A stretch of DNA of 63,560 nt, counting the filler, from Chrysochromulina tobinii (taxonomy: Eukaryota), in NCBI GenBank assembly GCA_001275005.1. It is 10 parts of 10 records of this genome, joined end to end, with 100 filler letters (N's around TTAATTAATTAA, not from the genome) between each part and the next. Parts side by side here need not be neighbours in the genome. Positions count along the whole stretch, not along the records: positions 22,084 to 32,648 come from JWZX01000019.1; 9 more parts are not named here. One strand, 5' to 3'. This document shows positions 89-32,648 of the stretch, piece by piece (the stretch's first letter is position 1; the number at the start of each line of letters is the position of its first letter). The position numbers and the translations under genes are program-made. A model generated the notes under the pieces. The model was not told the DNA's origin and searched no databases. It saw only the letters and a list, made by a program, of their open reading frames with translations.

Positions 89-1710
89 GAGTCAATCCGA
101 GTACTCTCCCTCAGCAGGCAAGCAGCGTCTCGACGACACCGGACGGGACGACATCGATGAAGCTGTCCTCAAGGAGCGCGCGGCCAAGCTCGAGGCGAAG
201 GCGGTGGACGCCAAGGCCCGAGCGCAAGCCGCCAGACGAAATATGCTCGCCGATGCGCAGGCAGCCGGCGACGCCTTTGCCGAGCAGCGCCGCATGATTG
301 AAGACCTGGTGAACGACCCGGTCGTCTTTGGGGGACTGGTTGCTTTGCAAGTGGAGCACAACCGATACAGTCTTCCTGGCTCGCCGATGTACGAACGATT
401 CGTAGCGACCAGGGCAGGCAAGCCGCCGCCGCCGTTGCGCATCGTGTTCCATGGCACTGACGACGAGAACATCGAGCCTATCTTGGCAAATGGAATGGAC
501 CCGTCCAGGCGTGGTATGCACGGCCAAGTTCATGGGCCGGGAGAGTACTTTGCGACGTGCGCGCTTACGAGCGTGCGTTTCGCGCTTAGGAACCGACCCG
601 GCCGGCTCACGGGGAGGCTGCTCATCTTTCTTGTGTCGGAGAAGGAGGTTCTGCCCCAGGCCCCTGACGTTGTCGTCGTAAACGACGTGTCGCGCGAGCT
701 GCCTCTGGGCACCGTGACATTTCAAATGGCGGACGCCAAGGTGAGCGAGTTAGATGAGAAGGCCCGAAAGGCGAAGGCCGCAGCTGAGCGCGCGAAGGCC
801 GCAGCTGAGCGCACAAACTCGACGGTGCCCCTGCAGACTCAAGTGCCACCTTCACACACTCAAGTGCCACTTGGCGAGAGCCGCAGCTCCGAGGGCCATC
901 AGGCGTCATCAGGCGTCATCGGGCGTCATCAGGCGTCATCAGGCGAGAGCCGCAGCTCCGAAGAGGCACTGCGACGGGCGCTGGGACGGCGACACGCGCC
1001 TCGGTCGACAGTGACGAACCACAACCACACAGTGACGAACCTCAACCCACTGGGAGGGCGACACGCGCCTCGGTCGACTGTCGTAGCCGTGATGAAGGAG
1101 CTCAAGCGGTTCCATCAAGGCTCAAGGGGCGGCTCGGGGCGCTGTGTTGAGCGCGACGCGACCGATGGCACGGCCGACGACGCCGACGCGGACGACGACT
1201 TTCGTGCCCTTCTCCTCGACGACGCCGACGTGCTCCGCTGGCGCGTGGAGATGCGCCTTCCACCGGACTCGCTGCTCGGGGCACAGCTAGCTGCGCATGC
1301 AGCGCGCTGGGGTGGGGGCGCGGTGGTCGAGCTTGAAGTGCTCTTTGGGGACGACTTTCCCGCGTCGCCGCCCTTTGTGCGTGTCGTCTCGCCGCGCTTC
1401 GCCTTCCACACTGGCCACGTCACCGTGGGCGGCTCGATCTGCATGCAACTCCTCACGACAAGCGGCTGGGACAGCTCCTTCACCGTGGAGGCTGCCCTTG
1501 TGATGGTACGTGATGCCATGCTGAGCGGTCATGGCGCGCTCGACAGCTCGCGTGCTCACTACGGCGCCCAACCCCCTCTCCCCACAGGTACGTGACGCCA
1601 TGCTGAGCGGTCATGGCGCGCTTGACAGCTCGCGTGCTCACGTGCCATATTCAGAGGCAGAGGCAAGGCACGCGTTTCGCCGTGTAGCTAATCAGCACGG
1701 GTGGGTGTGA
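6..1710 (+). CDS. PARP-like (probably mono-) ADP-ribosyltransferase fused to a C-terminal UBE2Q-type E2 domain; intron 1506-1587; 5' end uncertain (first ATG at 87)
   Basis: ART motifs IVFHGT, HGPGEYFA and DVVVVND..ELPLGTVTF. E2 motifs FGDDFPASPPFVRVVSPRF and GHVTVGGSICMQLL (catalytic Cys). Splicing out 1506-1587 (GT..CAG) gives the UBE2Q-like tail VPYSEAEARHAFRRVANQHGWV, with TGA ending at 1710. Confidence 0.85.
874..942 (+). other. Candidate GC-AG exon-echo intron (69 bp, in frame) with (GGCGTCATCA)n body
   Basis: G|GCGAGAGCCGCAGCTCCGA ... CATCAG|GCGAGAGCCGCAGCTCCGA: a 19-bp duplication flanking 10-bp tandem repeats. Confidence 0.5.
1506..1587 (+). other. Exon-echo intron (82 bp)
   Basis: GTACGT...CCCCTCTCCCCACAG. 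Its first 54 nt repeat exon 1588-1641 with 2 mismatches, and it ends in module GTGCTCACTACGGCGCCC..CCCCACAG. Confidence 0.85.
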
Positions 1711-21983: not shown

Positions 21984-22084
21984 NNNNNNNNNNNNNNNNN
22001 NNNNNNNNNNNNNNNNNNNNNNNNNNNTTAATTAATTAANNNNNNNNNNNNNNNNNNNNNNNNNNNNNNNNNNNNNNNNNNNNC

Positions 22085-23979
22085 AGCGATGCACTCGACC
22101 TCAACGACCCTCGCCGCTATCGGCCGCTCTGGAAGTCTGTCGGCGCACTGGACGAGCGCCGCCTCGCCGCCACGCATCGCCAACGCCACGAGCTCCAGGT
22201 CGACGCCGAGGCGGGGCAGACGATTCCGCTCTACCGCACCCACTACTCTTCGCCCGCCTACGTGGCATACTACCTGCTGCACATCTTCCCCGAGCTCACG
22301 TTCCACATCAACAGTGGCAAGTTTGACAAGGAGGCGCGCTCGTTTTCGTCGGTGAATAGGACGTGGCGGAATGTCTCCGAACGTGCCACCGGCGACGTCA
22401 AAGAACTCATCCCCCAATTCTACTCGGACCCCGCCTTCTTGAGAAAGGAGAGGGGCGTCCTGCTGCCTCCTTGGTGCGAGGACGTGGTCCTGCCTCCGTG
22501 GGCTGGCGGCTCCAACATCGAGTTTGTGCGCCAGATGCGCGCCGCGCTCGAGTCCGACTTCGTCTCGGCGCACCTTCACCTCTGGATCGACCTCATCTTT
22601 GGCAGCAAGCAGCAAGGCGCCCCCGCTCTCAAGGCGAACAACCTCTTCGAGAGCTACACATACGAGAGCGCGTTGGAGAGCGGCGAGCTCGACGATGCCG
22701 CCCGCGAGCTCATCCGCGCGTGCGCGACCGAATTCGGCCAGACGCCGCCCCAGCTCTTTGCGCGAGCCCACCCTCCTCGGCGACTTCACGTCAATGGGCT
22801 GCCGCAGCCATGGCGAGCGGCCGAGCCGAGCGCCACGCTCATCCAGGCGAATGCTCGGCGCTGGCTGGGCCGGCGTCACATCGTGGCGACCGCGGTCGAC
22901 TTCTTCTTCAATGAGAAGGCCTTCCGCGGCACGGCGGCGCTTTCCATCGAGGTGCCGCCGGTTGACGTCGTGCTGCGCACCGACTACACCGACGGCTTCT
23001 CCTTCGCCTACTCCAAGCGCACTGCCGACTGGATGCTCGCCTTGGCCGCCGCGACGGAGGCGGCCTCAGATGAGCAGGAGATTTGCACGTTCCTGGAGAG
23101 CTGCTTTCGCAGCGATGACGAACGCAGGTATGCACCATCCGAATGCCATCCGTTCGCGAATGCGCTGCGCGAGTACTGTGGCTTCGTCTCGCAGCTGTTT
23201 GCCCAGAACGGTCGTAGCCCTGCGTCGCGAATGAGTGCGGCTGTGCGCCTCAAGAACCTGTCAAAGGCCGTACAGCTGGGTCTCAAGCGAATGCACGCGA
23301 TAGTTGTGCGGATCCTGCCGCCCATGCTGGAGCCAAGGCGATCGGTGCTGGTGCGCGCATTGGTGCTGGATGAGATCACAACTCGCCTCTTCCGCCCGCT
23401 GATCATGCCTCTCATTCAGAGTGTCCATGGCGCCGACGATGCCGCCTATGCGGACAGCGTCGCCCGCTTTGCCCAGCTGCGCCCACACCACTTGGAGGGC
23501 GTCGTCAACCTGCCGCCGCACTTTTGGCTGGGCAGCAGCGACGCCGACGCGAGTAGTCACGTGCCGTACGCAACGGCGATCAAGGCGCTCTCGCACGTCT
23601 CCGCCACGTACTCAACGCGACGAAAGCTCGCCCTCCTGATGGATGTGCTGCAAGCGATCCAGCACCACGTGTGGAGCTACCACGGCATCGCCTCCCCAGA
23701 GGACCAAGCCAACGACAGGCGGCTCCGGCTCGCGGCCGACGAGCTGATCTCGGTGGTCGCGTACGTCCTCTCTCAGGCGCGGCCGGTGCTGCACCTCGGC
23801 TCGGAACTCGCATTCATCGAGCGCTTTGCCGACGACGGGTGCCTGCTTGGCGAGCATGGCTACTGCCTCGCGACGGTCCAGGCCGCCTCTGGGTTCCTCC
23901 GCACGCTGACCTGGCCCCAGATTGAGCTTGGCTTGCAGAATGTGGCGCTTCGCAAAGGAGCGGAGGCGGCGGCGGCAGA

Positions 23980-24012
<33 letters not shown>

Positions 24013-24586
24013 CCACAATGCCCAGCTGTTGCACGGCGACACTGGCGCAGCCGTAGCCGCATCAATAGCCGATGCCAGCAGCTCAGGATCGAACACGCCA
24101 AAACCACCGCGAACATTCGGGCCGAGATACTCTGGAATTGTGGAGCAAATCCGGGCCCGCAAGGCGAACGGAGGCACCCCAGCTGGAAGTAGCTCAGAAT
24201 CGAACGCGCCAAAATCACCGGCACCGCGAACGCTCGGGCCGAAATACTCTGCAATAGTCGAGCAAGTCCGGGCCCGCAAGGCGAATGGAGGCACCTCGGC
24301 TGGAAGTAGCTCAGAGTCGAACGCGCCAAAACCACCGCGACCGCTCGGGCCGAGATACTCTGAAGTCGCCGAGAGAATCCGGGCCCGCAAGGCGAACGGA
24401 GGCACCCCGGCTGATGCAGCGATGAACGCGGACAACACCATGAGACGCATACGCCGCGAGCAGCGGCGGGTCGTGGGAGATCCTCCAGGAGATCATTCGG
24501 GAGATCCTCTGGGAGATCCTCCAGGAGATCCTCTGGGAGATCCTCTGGGAGATCCTCTGGGAGATCCACCGGGAGATCGGATTTGA
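22085..24586 (+). CDS. BEACH domain + IQ motif + VPS9 (Rab5 GEF) domain protein, 5'-truncated
   Basis: BEACH: LDLNDPRRYR, THYSSPAYV, GDVKELIPQFY, DVVLPPWA, ALESDFVSAHLHLWIDLIFG, FGQTPPQLF. IQ: LIQANARRWLGRR. VPS9: LAADELISVVAYVL..SELAFIERF..GEHGYCLATV. Confidence 0.88.
24077..24415 (+). repeat. Three ~114-120 bp coding tandem repeats (SSSESNAPKPPRxxGPRYS..IRARKANGGT), followed by 12-bp GGAGATCCTCYG repeats at 24476-24578
   Basis: Visible in both DNA and translation. Confidence 0.9.
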
Positions 24587-24904
24587 GTACTTCGGTGTGT
24601 CTGGTGTAGCGACGGCCTTGCTTGTGGAGTCTCTGTTTGAGTTTCGGTAGGGAGGGGTCTCTCTCGCTTGCTGTGTGCAGCGACGGATGGGGGGGCGCTT
24701 GACGCTTGAGACATCTTGACGGATGACGCTCCCTGCAGCCTGCACCGCACCCTCGCTCCACGCCATCCCCATCGGCCATGTGTATTCGCGATTGTTCCGT
24801 TACCAAGTGAAACTCGAATCAGTCAAATACAGTCTCAGTCATTAGTATAGCCGAGGCCGACACGCATATCGTCATGCCACATCCGGACTCTCACTCTGGG
24901 GCGT

Positions 24905-26701
24905 TCATGTCTTCCTGGTGCTTCGCGCTTCCCCACGGCTGCTATTCGAGTATTCGTCCTCTTCCCAATCCGAAGGCGGATCCTCAAGCGCGCCGCCGCT
25001 GTCCCGCGACTGCTCGTCATCGTCGTCAAAGGCCTGCATCCAGTTCTTGGGCTGGGCGCCATACTGGGCGCCCGCGCGGCTGTCGTGCGCCTGGGAGGTG
25101 TGCGGCCTCGTTGGTGGCGCGCCCTCCTCGAGATCCTCAAACGCGGTGGTCCAGTCGGCCGCGGCGGCCGCTGCAGCGTCCTTCACAGCGTCCTTCACAG
25201 CGTCCTCGTGGGCGCCCTTCGAGCGCGGGGGCATCGCCCCCGGCAGTTGCCCATAGTGCGGCGAGAAGGTCGCATCCCACAGCTCCGCGGCCATCAACGC
25301 CTCCTCGGCACTCGGCGGCGCCTTGAGAGCCAGCGCCATCGCTTCCACAGCAGCCTGCTCGGGAGTGAGCGCCGTGCCGGGCGCACCGGACTGGGCGTGC
25401 AGGCGCGCACGCGGGGTGGACACCGACATGGGCGCCGCCGTGGGCGTTGCCCGCCCGCCGCCACCACCACCGCCCGCCGACTTGCGACTGCGCGGACGCT
25501 GTCGGCGAAGCGTCCCGCAGAGACATCCTGCACAGCTGAGGGCGAAGGCGAGGATGACGAGGAGAGGCCCGATGAGCTCCATCGCCAGCCGCCGCCCCGA
25601 TCGGATCGCCTCGAGTGCGCCGCCACCCCACGTGAACAGCAGCAGCAGCGCCGTCAGCGTCACGAGCCAGAGCCCTCGACGCGACTGGCGCCACCACGCC
25701 TGAAGCTTATCCGCCGGATGGGCATTCGCTGGCAGGGAGCGGTCCGCGCCACCGCAGTAGATGGACGCTGTGAGTGCGAGCTCGAGGAGGAGCCACACGT
25801 GCATCGGCAGCAGCGCCAAGCGCCAGCTCACGTGCAGGCCACCGTCCCCGAGCAGTGGAGGCAGCACAGTGAGCTGCGTCGTACTGAGCAGCAGCCATGC
25901 GGCGTCACGCGCCCAGCCGCCACTCGGGCTGTCGAGGCGGGTTGGGCGCGCGGCGGGCTGGCACGTGGCCGCGAGCAGCTGGCGCTCGCGCAGCGCCTCT
26001 GGCAGCCCCGACAGCGCCACTCCCCGCTGCACGAAAAGCGGTGCGAAGACATGCAACCAGGCGAGTGGCATCGCGTCAGGCCGAGTGTAACGGTCACGCT
26101 CGGCGTCGGGGCTCGTCTGATGGAGCCGATAGCACAAGAGCACGAGGAAGCTCAGCTGGAGCGCCGCCGTCGGAACGAGCTCACGCACCGCTTCGCGCGC
26201 CGCTGCGGGCGTGTCCGCGCCGGCGCCGATCACGGCCGCCATCGCCGTCGCCAGCGGCAGCGCCAGCCACAGCGGAAGGAACAGCAGCCACCACGGCACC
26301 GCGTCCAAGTAGCCGTCGTAGTGGAGCGCGGCGAGCACGAGGGCGAGGCCGAGCAGCACCACAAGCAGCGCGCCGCCCGCCACGAGCCCCGTTGCGAAGT
26401 AGACCCTCGGAGGCGAGGAGGTCGGCTCAACGGCGCCGACCGTGCGTGCAAAGCGATGAGCCTCCTCGTAGAGATGCAGCACGTCAAGCCCGAACGCATC
26501 GTAAACCTCTCGCCTTCGAGGGTCGCTCAAAATATCGTACGCCTCCGTGACCGCTGCAAACTGCGCCTTTGTGTCCTGGGCTGATTTGTCGGGGTGCAGC
26601 TGCACGGCGAGGCGGCGGTAGGCGCGCCGGACATCGTCGAGCGTCGCGTCCACCTCGCAGCCAAGCGTCCGATACAGGTCGTGCGGCGTGTAAGGCTCCA
26701 T
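24905..26701 (-). CDS. DnaJ (J-domain) multi-pass membrane protein with TMEM185/FAM11-like WxxxFxPLW helices
   Basis: DLYRTLGC..VRRAYRRLAVQLHPDK..EAYDILSDPRRREVYD, then PWWLLFLPLW, WLHVFAPLF, SWRLALLPMHVW. Confidence 0.85.
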   Translation of the reverse strand: MEPYTPHDLYRTLGCEVDATLDDVRRAYRRLAVQLHPDKSAQDTKAQFAAVTEAYDILSDPRRREVYDAFGLDVLHLYEEAHRFARTVGAVEPTSSPPRVYFATGLVAGGALLVVLLGLALVLAALHYDGYLDAVPWWLLFLPLWLALPLATAMAAVIGAGADTPAAAREAVRELVPTAALQLSFLVLLCYRLHQTSPDAERDRYTRPDAMPLAWLHVFAPLFVQRGVALSGLPEALRERQLLAATCQPAARPTRLDSPSGGWARDAAWLLLSTTQLTVLPPLLGDGGLHVSWRLALLPMHVWLLLELALTASIYCGGADRSLPANAHPADKLQAWWRQSRRGLWLVTLTALLLLFTWGGGALEAIRSGRRLAMELIGPLLVILAFALSCAGCLCGTLRRQRPRSRKSAGGGGGGGRATPTAAPMSVSTPRARLHAQSGAPGTALTPEQAAVEAMALALKAPPSAEEALMAAELWDATFSPHYGQLPGAMPPRSKGAHEDAVKDAVKDAAAAAAADWTTAFEDLEEGAPPTRPHTSQAHDSRAGAQYGAQPKNWMQAFDDDDEQSRDSGGALEDPPSDWEEDEYSNSSRGEARSTRKT

Positions 26702-26885
26702 AGGATGGCCCCCGCTCAGGCACGCTCAGGCGCACTCTGGTGGGCGCCGTGATCCAGAAAAACAGGTCGCCATTTTACCTTCGCGCCAATACAGCGCGTT
26801 TTGTCAACATCTCACAGATGTTCACAGCATCCGCCCCGGGGCCAATTTGTAAGTTGTCTGCTCTGGCCTCTGCAGAGTTCCGCCC

Positions 26886-29800
26886 CTACGCATGGTACGA
26901 GCGTTCGAGGTGCATGCCCGCGCTCGGGCCGGCGACCACATGCGCGAGGGTCATCTTGGTGTCCGCGCCCTCCCTCCCCGCCGCCCGGAGCGCCTCGACC
27001 GCCTCACCGAGCAGCTGGCGCTCAAACTCGAGCAGCCGCCGCGCCACCTCCGCTTCCGTGGAGCCATGCTTCATCATCATCGTGCTGAGCGCCGTACCGA
27101 GCGCGCCCCCTCCCATCCCCTCGGCCCCCTCCGCGACGGCCGCGTCGTACCGAGCGCTCAGAACGGCGCCCTCGGCGATGGCGTCGTCGTGGCGCCGCTT
27201 GTGGGCCTCGAGCAGCGCGATCATGTGCTCCCTCGCGAGCGCCTCATCTCGGATGGGCCGCTGCAGGTTGAACTCGCGTCTCCATGCGCCGAGTAGGGGG
27301 CCATCAACGCCCTCGCCCTCTCCATTGCAGCCATCAGCCCCCTCGCCCTCCGCCGTCTTGAGCGCCGTCTTGGGCGCCGTATTGGGCACTTGTACGATGG
27401 CCGCCGCCTCGGCCACCTCGTCCTCGCGCACGAGCATCGCCCGCACCGCCGCGAACAGCGGGCATGCCTCGAGCCGATGATCGGGCACCCACCTGTGGGG
27501 AGTGAAGGGCGTCGTGGTGAGCACTTGCATGCAGCAGAACAGCGGGCATGCCTCGAGCGGTTGATCGGGCACCCACCACGCATGCATCGCTTCGTCACAT
27601 CCGATGGCTGCCTGGGCGGCGGCAAGCTCGATGCGCCACGTGTCAATGGCGGCGGTCGGCGTGGCCTTGCCCTCGCCGCCCCCACCGCCCCCGCCGCCCT
27701 CGCCGCCGCCGTCGCCACCCCATCGGCCCAGCGCGATCGCGAGGAGCTCGTGCGGGGTCACGGGCACCTGTGGGGAGGGGAGCGCGTCGTGGTGAGCACT
27801 TGCATGCGAGGAGCTCGTGCGGGGTCACGGGCACCTGTGGGGAGGGGAGCGCGTCGTGGTGAGCACTTGCATGCGCGCACCTCGGCGGTGTGAAGCACAC
27901 CGCCGGGCGTCGTGGTGAGCACTTGCATGCGCGCACCTCGGCGGTGTGCAGCACCGACGTCGCGTCAAAGAAGCCATAGCGCTCGAAGAAGTCGAGATAA
28001 TCGCCCTCGTCCACCGAGATCGAGATTGCATCTCCCGCCGAGAGCGTGAATTCCGCATGTAACGCCACGCACGTCGCGTCGGCGCCAAGGCGTAAGGAGG
28101 CCACCGGCCCAACCTGATGAGGAAGGCAATCATAGGTCATCATAGGCAATCAGAGGCAATCAAGGTGAGTGGTTCACAGGAGGCCACCGGCCCAACCGAG
28201 GCATGCGCGGCGAGGTCGATGAGCGGGCAGAGGGCGAGGCCGTCGAGGCCCTCCACGCGGCGTGCACGTGTCTGCGTGAGAAGCGCCGCCCAACGGAAAC
28301 GAGCTTCGTCCCAGTAGACAATCGAGAGGTTCAAAGCTGACAGCACAGCCAGTCGCTCCGCCTCCACCCGTCGCCGCCACGCGCGCGCGCGGTGCCACGC
28401 GACGCAGTGCCGCAGGAGGCGCGCCGCGGCGCTGCCCTCCTCCCAAGCGGCCAACATGGCTGATTCGAGCCGCTCGGGCGGCGCCAAGCGCGCAAAGTAC
28501 GCCGCGCGAGCGTCGGGCAGGCAAGCTGGGGCTTCTTGGGCGCGTAGGCATGTGTTGGCGGATGGGCTGCTCGCGTCGTGTCGAGCGGATGGGCTGCTCG
28601 CGTCGTGTCGAGCGGATGTGTCAAGCAGCCGCAGCAGCGCCACGAACAAGCGCCCATCCTCACGCACGGCAACGCTCGCCTCGTCGCTCGCCTTCTCCAA
28701 GCCGCCCAACGCCTGCACGCGCGCCACCACCGCCGCCCACTCGGGCTCCGGCACCTCGGATGCCAAGACGCACGCCGCGAGGGGGATGGAGAGTAGCGTG
28801 TCGCCGCACGCACAGCCGGCGCCGGCATGCAGTGAGGCGCCTCGGGCAGAGTTGGGGCGTACCTGTGGGGAGTGGAGGGCGTCGCGGTGAGCACTTGCAT
28901 GCAGCCGCGGGCAGCGTTGGGGCGTACCTCGAGGGTGTGGGAAGTGGCCAACGTCGCCAGCGCGGCCGTCGCATGCGCGGCGCGGTCATCGGCCTCGAGT
29001 ACAGCCCACATGCGTACCCTCCGATGCGCCACCCACGCCGCCATCGCCTCTCGCCGCACCACCGCCTCGGCCACCATCCCATGCTGTCTGAGGGCCGCGT
29101 TCAACGCCGACGCCTCCCGCGCGAGCTCCGGCGTCTCGAGCCAGCACAGCCTCGCGCACCTGTGGGGAGGGGGGGAGGGCGTCGTGGTGAGCACTTGCAT
29201 GCAAGCAGTCTCGAGCCAGCACAGCCTAGCGCACCGAGAGCGCAGCACGCGACCGAGCTCCGCGAGCTCCGCGTGGTACGCGAAGAGGGCGGCGGCCCCG
29301 GCCGCGGAGAGCGCTGTGCTGGGCACGGGCCGCGAGTCGAGCCACGCACGCAGCCACGCGGGATCGAGGAAGACGACCGCGTCCGCGCCGTGGTGAGCGT
29401 CCGCGCCGTGGTGAGCGTCCGCGCCGTGGTGAGCGTCAGCGCCGTGGTGAGCGTCCGCGCCGTGGTGAGCGTCAGCGCCGTGGTGAGCGTCAGCGCTGTG
29501 ATGAGCATCAGCGCCGGTCGCTCCGCCGCCACGGCCGCTGTCGGCGTCGCCGCTGCCAGCGTCTCCGCCGCTGCCAGCATCGCCGCTGTTGTCAGCCCCT
29601 ACGCTGGTCGTCGGCGTGGTCGTCGACGTGGTCGTCAGCGTGGGTGGCGTCGCGCGCCATCCCGGGCGCCATCGGAGGTCGAGCCGCGTGTCGGCACTGT
29701 CGAGGGTGGCGTTGGCGGGCACGGTGGGCGTCGTCGGCGGGCTCGGCATTGGCAGCCGTGCCGCGAGCGCCGGGCGCGCGCCTGTGGGGAGGGCGAGGGC

Positions 29801-30929
29801 GCCGTGGTGAGCACTTGCATGCGCGCACCTCGGCGGTGTGCAGCACCGCCGGGCGTCGTGCTGAGCACTTGCATGCGCGCACCTCGGAGCATCTCATGCA
29901 GCCCCATGGCGAAGGGGAAGTTGTGATCGACCAGCTGTGCCCATAAGCTTATGGAGCCTGAGCGCGGCTGAGCGCATAGCGCGGCTGGGGCCATGAAGTT
30001 CTGCGAGACGGCGGAGGTCCACTCGAGATTGACGACGGCGTGATGCCAGCCGGCTGGGATGAAGACCATGTCGCCCGCCCCCTGCACGCACCTGTGGGGA
30101 GGCGAGGGCGCCGTGGTGAGCACTTGCATGCGCGCACCTCACGAAGACCATGTCGCCCGGCCCCTTGCACGCACTCGAGCATCGTGAGCTTGCCCGCCAC
30201 CGCGCTCCGCTGCAGCCGCGGATGCTCATCCAAGAACCAGCAAACGGGCAGCTGATGCTTTCCTTGGGCAAAGTGCTCGAGACCGTGCACGGCCATGTCG
30301 GTCTCGGGCGCGAGCATGCACCAGCGCTTGCGCCCGGCCAGGCACACGTTCCACGCGCTCGTGCACAGCGGGTCCACGTGCAGGAAGGTGCCGCTGCGCG
30401 CGCCGCCAAAGAAGCAGTAGCGCGCGCGCTTCGAGCCTGGGATCTCCGCGAGGAGGTCGTCGGCGAAGAAGGAGGGCGGCGCGAAGTCGTCGAGCAGCGC
30501 CGCGCGCTCGCCCTGGAAGCTGCGCTCCACCAGGTAGTATGGCGAGTCGGCCGCGTTGTTCGCTGCGTACTCCACGTACTCGCGCAGCGGCAGCCGCACA
30601 TCATCAGCAAGGTCCATCTCAAAGTCGCCATAGTGCGCCACGAGCGCCTCGGCGCTCGACCACCGCTCGGCTGCGCGCCAGCCCCACGCCTTGGCGGCGC
30701 CGCGCATCACAAAGGGCGTCGTACGCGCGCTCAGGCTCGCCGCGAGAGGCTGCTCCGCCGCATCCACGCGGAGCTCCTCCATCGTCGTCGCCGCCGGTGG
30801 CGCAGCACCCAGGCTATCGACAACGCGGACGGCCTCCTCGCCACGCTCACGAATGTTGTGCAGAGTCGAGCTGCCGAGCGGCTCCAGCCAGCGTCGGGCC
30901 ATCGGCGAGGTTGGCTCCGAGAACTCCAT
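26886..30929 (-). CDS. JMJD6-like JmjC oxygenase fused to a degenerate Rubisco-LSMT-type SET domain; 8 exons: 30929-30175, 30091-29883, 29781-29235, 29159-28928, 28862-28197, 28113-27937, 27767-27577, 27492-26886
   Basis: Exons sum to 3384 nt (1127 aa + stop) with consistent phases. JmjC: GTFLHVDPLCTSAWN, GRKRW, FIPAGWHHAVVNLE. SET-like: RGASLHA..GDTLLSIP, LCPLIDLAAH, AGDAISIS..FFERYGF. Confidence 0.85.
27493..27576 (-). other. Exon-echo intron (84 bp, in frame)
   Basis: 40-bp echo GTGGGTGCCCGATCA.C.GCTCGAGGCATGCCCGCTGTTC plus module ..CTCCCCACAG. Confidence 0.85.
27768..27936 (-). other. Compound intron: two abutting units 27936-27835 and 27834-27768 joined by AG/GT, three module copies
   Basis: Removal gives HTAE|VPVTPHELLAIA. 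A 67-bp tandem duplication spans the acceptor. Confidence 0.85.
28114..28196 (-). other. Exon-echo intron of a second family (83 bp; GATTGCC-repeat body, CCTCATCAG acceptor)
   Basis: TCG|GTTGGGCCGGTGGCCTCCT..GATTGCCTCTGATTGCCTATGATGACCTATGATTGCCTTCCTCATCAG|GTTGGGCCGGTGGCCTCCT. Confidence 0.88.
28863..28927 (-). other. Exon-echo intron (65 bp)
   Basis: GAG|GTACGCCCCAACGCTGCCCGCGGC..module..CCCCACAG|GTACGCCCCAACTCTGCCCGAGGC. Removal fixes the frame into the SET N-terminus. Confidence 0.9.
29160..29234 (-). other. Exon-echo intron (75 bp, in frame)
   Basis: 27-bp echo GTGCGC(T/G)AGGCTGTGCTGGCTCGAGAC plus module. The unspliced ORF reads CARLCWLET-ACMQVLTTTPSPPPHR-CARLCWLET. Confidence 0.85.
29379..29515 (-). 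repeat. 18-bp coding minisatellite (GADAHH)x7
   Basis: Unit GCTCACCACGGCGC(G/T)GAC on the minus strand. Confidence 0.92.
29782..29882 (-). other. Module-family intron (101 bp), near-copy of intron 27835-27936
   Basis: CCGAG|GTGCGCGCATGCAAGTGCTC..CCCCACAG|GC. Removal joins the JmjC frame to the MPSPPT frame. Confidence 0.88.
30092..30174 (-). other. Exon-echo intron (83 bp)
   Basis: GA|GTGCGTGCAAGGGGCCGGGCGACATGGTCTTC..GCATGCAAGTGCTCACCACGG..CCCCACAG|GTGCGTGCAGGGGGCGGGCGACATGGTCTTC. Removal restores LECVQGAGDMVFIPAGWHH. Confidence 0.9.
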
Positions 30930-31152
30930 GTTCACTATGAATACACAGCGACGCGTCGGTATCTCCGGAAAGAGAAAGAGCGGCGAGACCCATGTATGAA
31001 CTCGGGAGGGAGCGCGCCCGCCGACATGGGCGGTGGACCCCCAGATGTCCGCGCGGAACTAGGCGTGAATTTGCGAGGTTGGCGCGAAACTTCGCCTGTT
31101 CAACACAACGCGCTTCGAAGCACGATTTCTTTTTGTGAAGGTGCGTGCAAAA

Positions 31153-32648
31153 ATGCATAACCTCTTGCTGTCTGCAGCGAGCGGCTACCCGGATAGAATG
31201 GACTGCTCGCAGGCCTTGACTGTGGGCAACACCATCATGTTTGACATATCCAAAAGCGATTCCCTGAGCACGGCCTCCTTTGTCGGCAAGGCGTGCGGCG
31301 GCACGTTCACCGCCGGCGAGACGCTCACCGCGACAACAAACGCGCCAGGCCAACACCTTATGGAGCTCACTGGCGGCGCGACGTTCACTGGCGGCAAGTG
31401 CGACGGGTTGCGCATCGACAATGCTAACTCCGCGACCGTCTCGACGACGGGCGCCGGCGCCGGCGCCACGATCGCCCTCTTCCTATTCGATACCTTCTCC
31501 ATCGCGCCCAAGTTTGAGACGGGCGGCTCGTCGGCCAAGGTCGAGCGTCATGTGGCGCCGGAGCCCTTGGCGGACACTTCCGCCTCGCCGAGCCCTAATG
31601 CGTCGACGATCGTGGGCACGGAGCTCACCCACAGCCTCGACGACGGACCCGCGTTCGTCGTCTGCATCTCGGCCGCCAACTTGCCCCTGGCGGGCCGCCT
31701 CACGGCGTGCATCATCAACGACGGCTCATGCCCGAACACGATATCGCGCCCGTACCTGTCCACCGCGGTCGGCGGCACTGGCCTCTACCGCATCCCGGCT
31801 GGCAACTCCACCATCGACCCGTGCGCCTTCTACCGCGCTGCCGCGAGCACGCGCGCCGGGCGTCGTGTCTGGCGTGACTCGCGTCGTGTCGGGCGTGACT
31901 CGATGACGGCCGACGACGGGCTGCGCAAGGGCGCGCGCCAGGTCTTTGAGGTCGCGCTCGAGGAACCCTTCATCGAGGGCAAGGTCGGGGACGCCGACGT
32001 TAAGTACGAGTACTCGTTCCCGTACGGCCAGACGAATGTGAATGAGGATACGGCGGGCGGCGACCCCGTCGAGGAAGCGGCAAAAAGGGGCGGGGTGCCT
32101 CTGCGGTGGGTGGAGCGCTTCGACGGCGCACTCGTGCTGCTCGGGCTCGGGTTGCTCGGGTTCATCTTGGTTGCAGGTTGCTCGGAGCAGGATCGGTGCA
32201 GACCAAACAAGCGCTCCGCGAGTCGGTCGAAAACCAATCGCTCCTACCGTAACAAGTGGTTCGAACTGGCCTTGCTCGCGCACTTGGTCCCGCGCGTCGC
32301 CGACGCACAGAGCAGCGCCTACTTCACCGTCGCCTCCGGCCCATGCACCGTCGATCCGAGCGCCCCGAACTGCATTCGCTCGCCCAACTTTCCGTCGAAT
32401 TACGGCGTCAACGAGGCGTGCTCCATCACGTCGACCGCGCTCGCCATTGGAAGGCCCCTGACAGCGACCTCCTTTGTTACGGAGGCTGGTTACGACTTTC
32501 TCTACATGCCTAGCCACCCGTCAGGGACGTTGACGGCCTTCTCAGGATCGACCGGACCTTCCAATTTCATCTTGGGCCCGGGGACGATCCAATGGTCTTC
32601 AGACAACAGAGCCACCAGTACCGGCTGGCGAGTGTGCGTGCCGCTTGC
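31153..32648 (+). CDS. Mosaic hypothetical protein ending in a CUB-like domain, 3'-truncated
   Basis: CIRSPNFPSNYGVNEACSI..FVTEAGYDFL..IQWSSD..TGWRVC is CUB-like. Upstream segments look unrelated to each other and include internal hydrophobic stretches. Confidence 0.5.

Follow-up and report, generated by a model that had tools for sequence, protein, structure and literature searches.

Introduction

Whether new spliceosomal introns arise by way of RNA or of DNA is a long-standing question, and few intron gains have a known source (PMC3443670, Table 1). A gene of Chrysochromulina tobinii raises the question in a specific form: how did one of its introns come to contain the end of an exon that lies 1.9 kilobases (kb) away? 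The window analysed here is a stretch of 63,560 nucleotides (nt) of this genome (GCA_001275005.1), made of ten contig pieces with linkers between; the gene and its pair of near-identical introns lie in the piece at 22084-32648 (JWZX01000019.1). The intron at 29.8 kb (I2) holds an exact copy, here called the tag, of the exon end preceding the intron at 27.9 kb (I6). Exon bases from 27.9 kb have been carried into the intron at 29.8 kb, which makes this one of the rare intron gains with an identifiable donor. I2 probably arose by DNA-level copying of the 27.9-kb intron guided by microhomology, either by template switching or by ectopic conversion. The RNA and DNA routes of intron gain make different, testable predictions at this gene.

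The tagged intron and its donor

The features on which the argument rests are as follows. The acceptor-bearing 40-nt sequence that ends most of the introns is called the module, and the short sequence preceding several of its copies the leader.

26886..30929, minus strand: host gene, eight exons, starting at 30929; predicted protein of 1127 amino acids (aa), containing a JmjC/Cupin_8 domain; its second half is SET-like
29782..29882, minus strand: intron I2, the copy; 101 nt, GT-AG; unit U, leader and full module, with no long duplication of its own flank
29829..29882, minus strand: unit U in I2; 54 nt made up of leader, 5' part of the module, 2-nt bridge and tag
29829..29848, minus strand: exon-derived tag, an exact copy of 27956-27937
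29782..29822, minus strand: full 3' module of I2, with pyrimidine tract and CAG end; one edit from the I1 module and three edits from the 27.9-kb modules
29768..29776, minus strand: 9 nt of the exon after I2, equal to the bridge region of unit U; a weak, post hoc match
27937..27956, minus strand: tag source, the last 20 nt of exon 6 (VLHTAE)
27835..27936, minus strand: donor unit I6a+b; 102 nt, namely unit U with the tag changed at two places, leader and module
27768..27834, minus strand: I6c, a perfect 67-nt tandem duplication of the module and the start of exon 7

I2 (29882-29782) and the donor unit (27936-27835) are identical at 96 of 103 alignment columns, differing by four substitutions, one 2-nt gap and one 1-nt gap. 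An exact match of the length of the tag has a chance probability of about 4e-8 within 4.2 kb. Both introns interrupt the exon junction CCGAG|G. The 9-nt leader, GAGGTGCGC, occurs at five places in the gene, each time directly before a module copy, and one of these is intron 30174-30092 (I1). The preliminary description of this DNA, made from the sequence alone, had reported the near-identical pair, the exact tag, the common junction and the leader in I1, and on each of these points it is confirmed. It had also called the tag unrelated to the exons around I2. This holds for the tag alone, whose likeness to the exons flanking 29.8 kb is not significant (P 0.06-0.12), but not for unit U as a whole, in which the 9 nt just ahead of the tag are identical to positions +6 to +14 in the exon downstream of I2. 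In post hoc tests, the overall likeness of U to that exon gave P values of about 0.01-0.08, and the 9-nt bridge match, colinear with weaker matches, gave 0.004-0.08.

I2 is presumably a spliced intron, judging from the reading frame and from the empty site of a relative: the 1127-aa frame is open once seven introns are removed, and retention of I2 would shorten it to 403 aa. RNA contigs show no joint at I1, I2 or I3, where their lack of cover makes this no evidence either way. One contig from an RNA run matches 29795-29882 without a gap but with four differences; it may represent either site in a variant form from a relative. Within its 3' module, I2 contains CTCAC, which we take to be branch-site-like. 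At 29829-29828 (minus strand) the tag recreates a donor site inside I2, the use of which would add 18 residues in frame.

The preliminary description gave the 27.9-kb intron as 102 nt. That is the whole intron in two relatives, P0024 and P0025. In this strain 169 nt (27936-27768) are removed, as exon 6-exon 7 joints in RNA contigs from two of four runs demonstrate. Excision of 102 nt alone breaks the frame here; on the reading frame, the 102-nt unit and I6c must both be removed, in one step or in two. At 27835-27834 (minus strand) an acceptor abuts a donor (CAG|GT), an arrangement that would permit removal of the 169-nt intron in two steps.

Specificity of the tag

The tag extended by 4 nt (24 nt) was found in only three contigs of metagenome_contigs, a collection of 241 million records. 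All three represent this locus, each carries two tag copies 1,892 nt apart, and they are 99.2-99.97% identical to the contig studied here. This restriction to one locus supports the local origin proposed in the preliminary description, and it sets aside the possibility raised there that the tag belongs to a genome-wide module consensus. The 40-nt module itself is genome-wide: each DNA run has 1,027-1,061 records on the region, stacked up at the modules, and their unrelated loose ends have a common start.

The preliminary description had also envisaged that reads might fail to support the 29.8-kb copy. In three of the four DNA runs a contig spans 29819-30116, joining the upstream exon and the tag with no differences. 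These contigs have single-copy depth (39-50, against 34-53 in neighbouring contigs). The fourth run barely covers the locus, and the other three probably derive from the source culture, so that they check the assembly rather than the biology.

Empty and occupied sites in relatives

The relatives are seen only as translated proteins of metagenome assemblies, in which introns are visible because gene callers read into them. Thirteen of these proteins reach the 29.8-kb site; P0005 and P0021 diverge before I2 and P0020 stops short of it. P0018, an unrelated protein of 38 aa, was left out of all counts, and P0020 was counted as unclear at I1. The preliminary description had advised looking for a relative with an empty site. 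P0019 is such a relative: its 29.8-kb site is precisely empty and reads exactly as the spliced junction. P0019 comes from a contig of 24,140 nt and is identical to the window at 296 of 311 residues over the JmjC part; it reads through an unspliced I3 and is therefore from DNA. I2 with unit U is present in all 12 occupied relatives, with two copies of U in P0001, and an intron lacking U was seen at 29.8 kb neither in these 12 nor in the window.

At 27.9 kb the intron is present in all nine proteins and U in eight. The ninth, P0026, has a 47-nt intron without U; since this may be a collapsed repeat, it was not taken to prove that the ancestral intron was short. I6c occurs in P0023, while P0024 and P0025 have the donor unit without it. 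Eleven long distant homologues are continuous across both intron positions, which makes both introns gains in this lineage, and the VLHTAE motif is kept and uninterrupted in distant homologues. Elsewhere in the gene, I1 is absent in 13 of the 14 close relatives that reach its site (one unclear). P0025 has I7 and P0024 lacks it. An eighth family intron (about 27260-27310), which is not in the window and has the module subtype of I7, is single in P0024 and doubled in P0025.

Several variants are common to the two sites. The CAG form of the first module occurs in 6 of 12 proteins at 29.8 kb and in 4 of 9 at 27.9 kb; a frame-shifting form of the tag occurs at 29.8 kb in P0013 and at 27.9 kb in P0023-P0025; both types of 3' module occur at both sites, the 27.9-like type being present at 29.8 kb in 4 of 11 relatives. 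These patterns suggest later two-way conversion, although assemblers can also mix repeats. The preliminary description took the tag to give the direction of copying and placed the origin of the intron at 27.9 kb. The passage of the tag from the 27.9-kb exon to the 29.8-kb intron is certain; the order in which the introns arose is only likely, because the variants shared between sites point to two-way exchange. The exactness of the tag may itself stem from later conversion and not from the first event. A mosaic reading of I2 from its 3' end was weakened by the presence of both module types at both sites in relatives. In P0004 the exon upstream of I2 is joined to the one that follows the 27.9-kb intron: either 1.9 kb was deleted between the repeats, or the assembly made a hybrid of the two sites. 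P0004 was not counted as proof of a deletion.

How the copy may have been made

In the sequence of events proposed here, a short intron at 27.9 kb would first have formed from a 4-nt duplication, a GC run and the acceptor module. A slipped duplication across its donor site would then have placed the last 20 exon bases inside the intron, producing unit U; duplications of this kind are seen at I6c, in P0001 and in P0025. U was perhaps kept there, an intron of 46-47 nt being shorter than the other introns seen (65-84 nt). Subsequently, a DNA end at the empty 29.8-kb site would have copied the intron in full and been rejoined at AG|G, with no change to the exons. The match on which this step depends is observed: the empty site and the donor junction agree at 12 of 13 nt. 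With the donor excluded, the empty site ranks first among 3,364 exon positions, and only 3 of 116,540 background sites match the donor junction as well. Finally, the two copies would have exchanged variants, and the 3' part of I2 with its 9-nt leader would have seeded I1 about 210 nt upstream, in this strain only. I1 is likely a daughter of I2, given their closely similar modules and common leader, and the absence of I1 from 13 of 14 relatives, set beside the presence of I2 in 12 of 13, fits I2 as its donor.

The preliminary description left two routes open, intron transposition (reverse splicing and reverse transcription) and microhomology-guided conversion. Homology-guided DNA copying fits better and reverse splicing less well. 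Template switching on DNA is favoured because of the junction match, of changes that extend a hairpin, and of tandem duplications across splice sites. The hairpin formed by the tag has 5 base pairs in the exon, 8 with the bridge in I2 and 10 with the GT insertion at 27.9 kb, and whole units fold at z -2.6 and -3.0. The lengthening of the hairpin by the bridge and the GT insertion fits snap-back copying. Two features of the wider family point the same way: an intron of another gene (1506-1587) joins its module through 8 nt that its exon also contains, and the family events are clustered locally.

Several results weigh against this account. Module-like words are not significantly enriched in downstream exons (2 of 7, p about 0.2), and no clear junction homology was found at I1, I3, I5 or I7. 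At many other loci the module begins at one constant point, which suggests that a dedicated machinery is at work. In the present strain, I2 has a 3' module nearer to that of I1 than to those at 27.9 kb. An exon-6 protein from the contig of P0019 was not found, and its 27.9-kb site may be either occupied or empty; in the tree the root has support of only 41/70, so that loss of I2 in P0019 is possible. The assemblies behind the relatives' proteins can, moreover, mix repeat copies.

One other explanation takes the module to be a tiny non-autonomous copy-and-paste element, moved by a Replitron- or Helitron-like HUH enzyme or by a target-primed reverse transcriptase. Such an element would have a fixed end at AG|G and a fuzzy end that drags donor flank with it, I2 being an unusually long fuzzy end from the 27.9-kb copy. 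Replitron-1 insertions are described with a parent-derived flank and variable-length duplications (PMC10288648), and the piling of more than 1,000 records per DNA run on modules with loose ends at a common start, as well as duplications of 19-54 nt at eight family units, agrees with this. The module is, however, only 40 nt long, it forms no stable hairpin and no terminal repeat was seen in it, and a transposase is not needed for 3'-truncated modules or for duplications that cross splice sites; the explanation is regarded as unlikely. Still less weight is given to the proposal that U was assembled at 29.8 kb, as copying switched repeatedly between the exon downstream of that site and the 27.9-kb junction, and that U was then copied back. 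It draws on the colinear 9-nt match, on agreement of the leader with the exon after I2 at 7 of 8 nt, on the intron without U in P0026 (one of nine) and on the variants common to both sites. The tests concerned were post hoc, extension of the hairpin explains the two bridge bases equally well, P0026 may be a collapsed repeat, and the 12 relatives and the window offer no 29.8-kb intron without U. In a variant of this proposal an older 29.8-kb intron was merely converted. Under either form the direction of the tag holds and the origin was not a one-step copy.

Reverse splicing would have the 102-nt intron excised and then inserted at CCGAG|G in the transcript it came from, after which a reverse-transcribed copy recombined with the gene. 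I2 does match the whole 102-nt intron of relatives from end to end, with unchanged exons and a site that is empty in P0019, and same-gene intron pairs in Oikopleura have been read in this way (PMC3879977). This route nevertheless makes no use of the match between the first bases of the intron and the exon after the empty site, a 12/13-nt match that reaches beyond the splice junction. It also leaves U, I6c and I1 unexplained, which need exon bases or duplications; U, I6c and the doubled intron of P0025 cannot derive from an excised intron because they contain exon bases from beyond the splice site. The tag in I2 has the sequence of the exon and not that of the donor's internal copy, which has two changes, although that copy may have changed later. 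Reverse splicing is held to be improbable. That the 29.8-kb copy is an artefact of assembly is hardly credible: a 46-nt exact repeat links the two sites, and a jump of this kind is seen in P0004, yet the same structure stands in three other assemblies, in the single-copy contigs of three runs and in 12 diverged variants among the relatives.

Under DNA-level copying, I2 behaves like an intron transferred by conversion within one gene, in an introner-like family that fails the tests for miniature inverted-repeat transposable elements (MITEs) and for Replitrons. A broader version, which we put forward tentatively and consider doubtful, is that introns here breed without a transposase: repair or replication would change template to the 3' end of an intron close by and copy it into an exon with a variable tag of donor flank, and the return upstream would leave a long duplication that supplies the donor site. 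If true, the descent of introns could be followed by their tags, one gene at a time, in living strains.

Other introns and the module family

The remaining introns of the gene, and two in another gene of the window, are as follows.

30092..30174, minus strand: intron I1, 83 nt; 32-nt duplication of the next exon, leader, module
29160..29234, minus strand: intron I3, 75 nt; 27-nt duplication and module; read through in P0019
28863..28927, minus strand: intron I4, 65 nt; a duplication and a 7-nt gap, meeting the module at an 8-nt shared stretch; RNA joint skips 65 nt
28114..28196, minus strand: intron I5, 83 nt; 19-nt duplication and a second kind of module (GATTGCC repeats, CATCAG end); RNA joint skips 83 nt
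27493..27576, minus strand: intron I7, 84 nt; 40-nt duplication and module; RNA joint skips 84 nt
1506-1587, plus strand: family intron in another gene; 54-nt duplication with two differences, and a module without its first 8 nt
874-942, plus strand: likely GC-AG intron; 19-nt duplication and tandem 10-nt repeats ending in CATCAG, about 560 nt from the 1506 intron

A copy of 19-40 nt of the next exon, starting with GT and followed by the acceptor module, opens five of the seven introns as well as I6c. Duplications of 19-54 nt are found at I1, I3, I4, I5, I6c, I7 and the two introns of the other gene. In the 1506 intron the module is entered at an 8-nt stretch in common with its exon. A scan of 62.7 kb yielded no further clear case of duplication plus module, its three extra hits being simple repeat, and 8 of the 10 family events in these 62.7 kb fall within 2.7 kb. 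A local source was not found for the fillers of I3, I5 and I7, and an 8-nt match of the I1 filler at 30853 is within chance.

The family resembles introners in part. Similar sequence at many unrelated loci is seen for the 40-nt module alone, the tag not being shared, and presence and absence at orthologous sites vary among relatives for I1, I2, I7 and the eighth intron (at the protein level). MITE-like features were lacking: no inverted arms were seen at intron ends among the best (longest) 25 of 35 pairs, and in place of a short fixed target duplication the duplications are of 19-54 nt, with no long one at I2. Module hairpins fold no better than shuffled sequences (z -0.37 to +0.66).

The module pattern had no match in genome_contigs and matched one or two loci in viral_contigs, of which L006 is a true module copy. 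Another candidate there, L008, was rejected as a chance match in coding DNA. The copy at L006:410-460 stands at the end of its record after short tandem repeats and is probably host DNA. Other loci in the reads have tandem modules with unique spacers, and some combine both kinds of module. At 30143-30174 (minus strand) the duplicated part of I1 reads like a Pro form with one added base, whereas the exon has Ala; both forms occur in relatives. With codons deduced from proteins, this difference hints at copying between two haplotypes.

Comparison with known systems

In Oikopleura dioica, four near-identical same-gene intron pairs are read as products of reverse splicing (as cited in PMC3879977; PMC4122922, PMC3514964). 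The present pair is similar in that a whole intron was duplicated to a new position in the same gene. It differs in its exon-tagged donor and in the empty site of a relative, neither of which is mentioned for Oikopleura in the passages cited.

In Symbiodinium and Polarella, introner classes 4/5 and 6/8/10 are described as carrying their own 3' splice site and taking the 5' site from the target duplication (10.1101/2020.10.14.339549), and fam24 of Emiliania is listed with '10bp terminal direct repeats' (PMC12130899 supplement 8). Like these, the family described here has a repeated acceptor-bearing unit and a donor GT or GC from duplicated exon, with the mRNA restored. Introners that obtain their donor from the target are reported to have fixed duplications of 3-8 nt (review PMC11282704), with inverted repeats in Symbiodinium, whereas those found here are variable and of 19-54 nt. 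The 40-nt unit, the carriage of donor flank, the local clustering and the lack of a long duplication at I2 are further differences from introners as these sources describe them. The Chrysochromulina introner given as an example in a 2022 survey carries its own 5' site and has a 4-bp duplication, a layout opposite to that of the acceptor-bearing module.

The closest footprint among the systems compared is that of Replitron-1 of Chlamydomonas reinhardtii, with one fixed end, a parent-derived fuzzy end that names the donor and a target duplication of variable length. Replitron-1 is at least 910 bp long, with 6-bp terminal direct repeats, an RG target and a known transposase, and in the text cited it is not described as intron-forming (PMC10288648). 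A fuzzy donor-derived end and variable duplication are found here too, the leader of I1 being common to I2 and I6. Terminal direct repeats, a hairpin and an RG target were not found in the module family; read on the coding strand, the two bases next to its fixed end are GT or GC.

Intron transfer, tandem genomic duplication and intron gain through break repair are reviewed in PMC3443670, and synthesis-dependent microhomology-mediated end joining (SD-MMEJ) and microhomology-mediated break-induced replication (MM-BIR) in PMC7407515. As in these DNA routes, recombination or duplication would here give a precisely spliced intron, with microhomology and templated insertions. Intron transfer as reviewed takes place between paralogues at the same position; here the positions are unrelated parts of one gene, encoding different protein regions, and their flanks have about 12 nt of chance homology in common. 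I6c is wholly a duplicate of adjacent sequence, as U at 27.9 kb probably is, while I1-I5 and I7 are not, their modules coming from elsewhere.

A literature search, with sequence datasets outside its range, found no account of this module family or of an exon-tagged intron copy. A 16-mer of the module was absent from 12 of the 14 supplement files of PMC12130899 and from one truncated file of PMC9860276, tables that may not print sequences. The largest published introner survey, of 2025, lists no families for C. tobinii (PMC12130899 supplement 7); a large family of young introns may have gone unnoticed there, half of each intron being specific to its host. At this one gene the donor can be named, the site is empty in a relative, a second-generation daughter intron is likely, and living strains differ at four sites or more. 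What is new is the identification of the donor, the finding of the empty site and the turnover of introns from strain to strain.

The host gene

The first half of the host protein has a Pfam Cupin_8/JmjC match. For the second half, the homologue P0028 has a Pfam SET match and P0032 is the same JmjC-SET-like fusion, which recurs in distant homologues. The locus is present in mixed-culture DNA runs and in freshwater RNA runs. Two coding tandem repeats lie within the gene, one at 29361-29516 made of 18-nt units (ADAHHG) and the other a perfect 27-nt duplication at 28558-28611; at the place of the first, P0019 has a different repeat.

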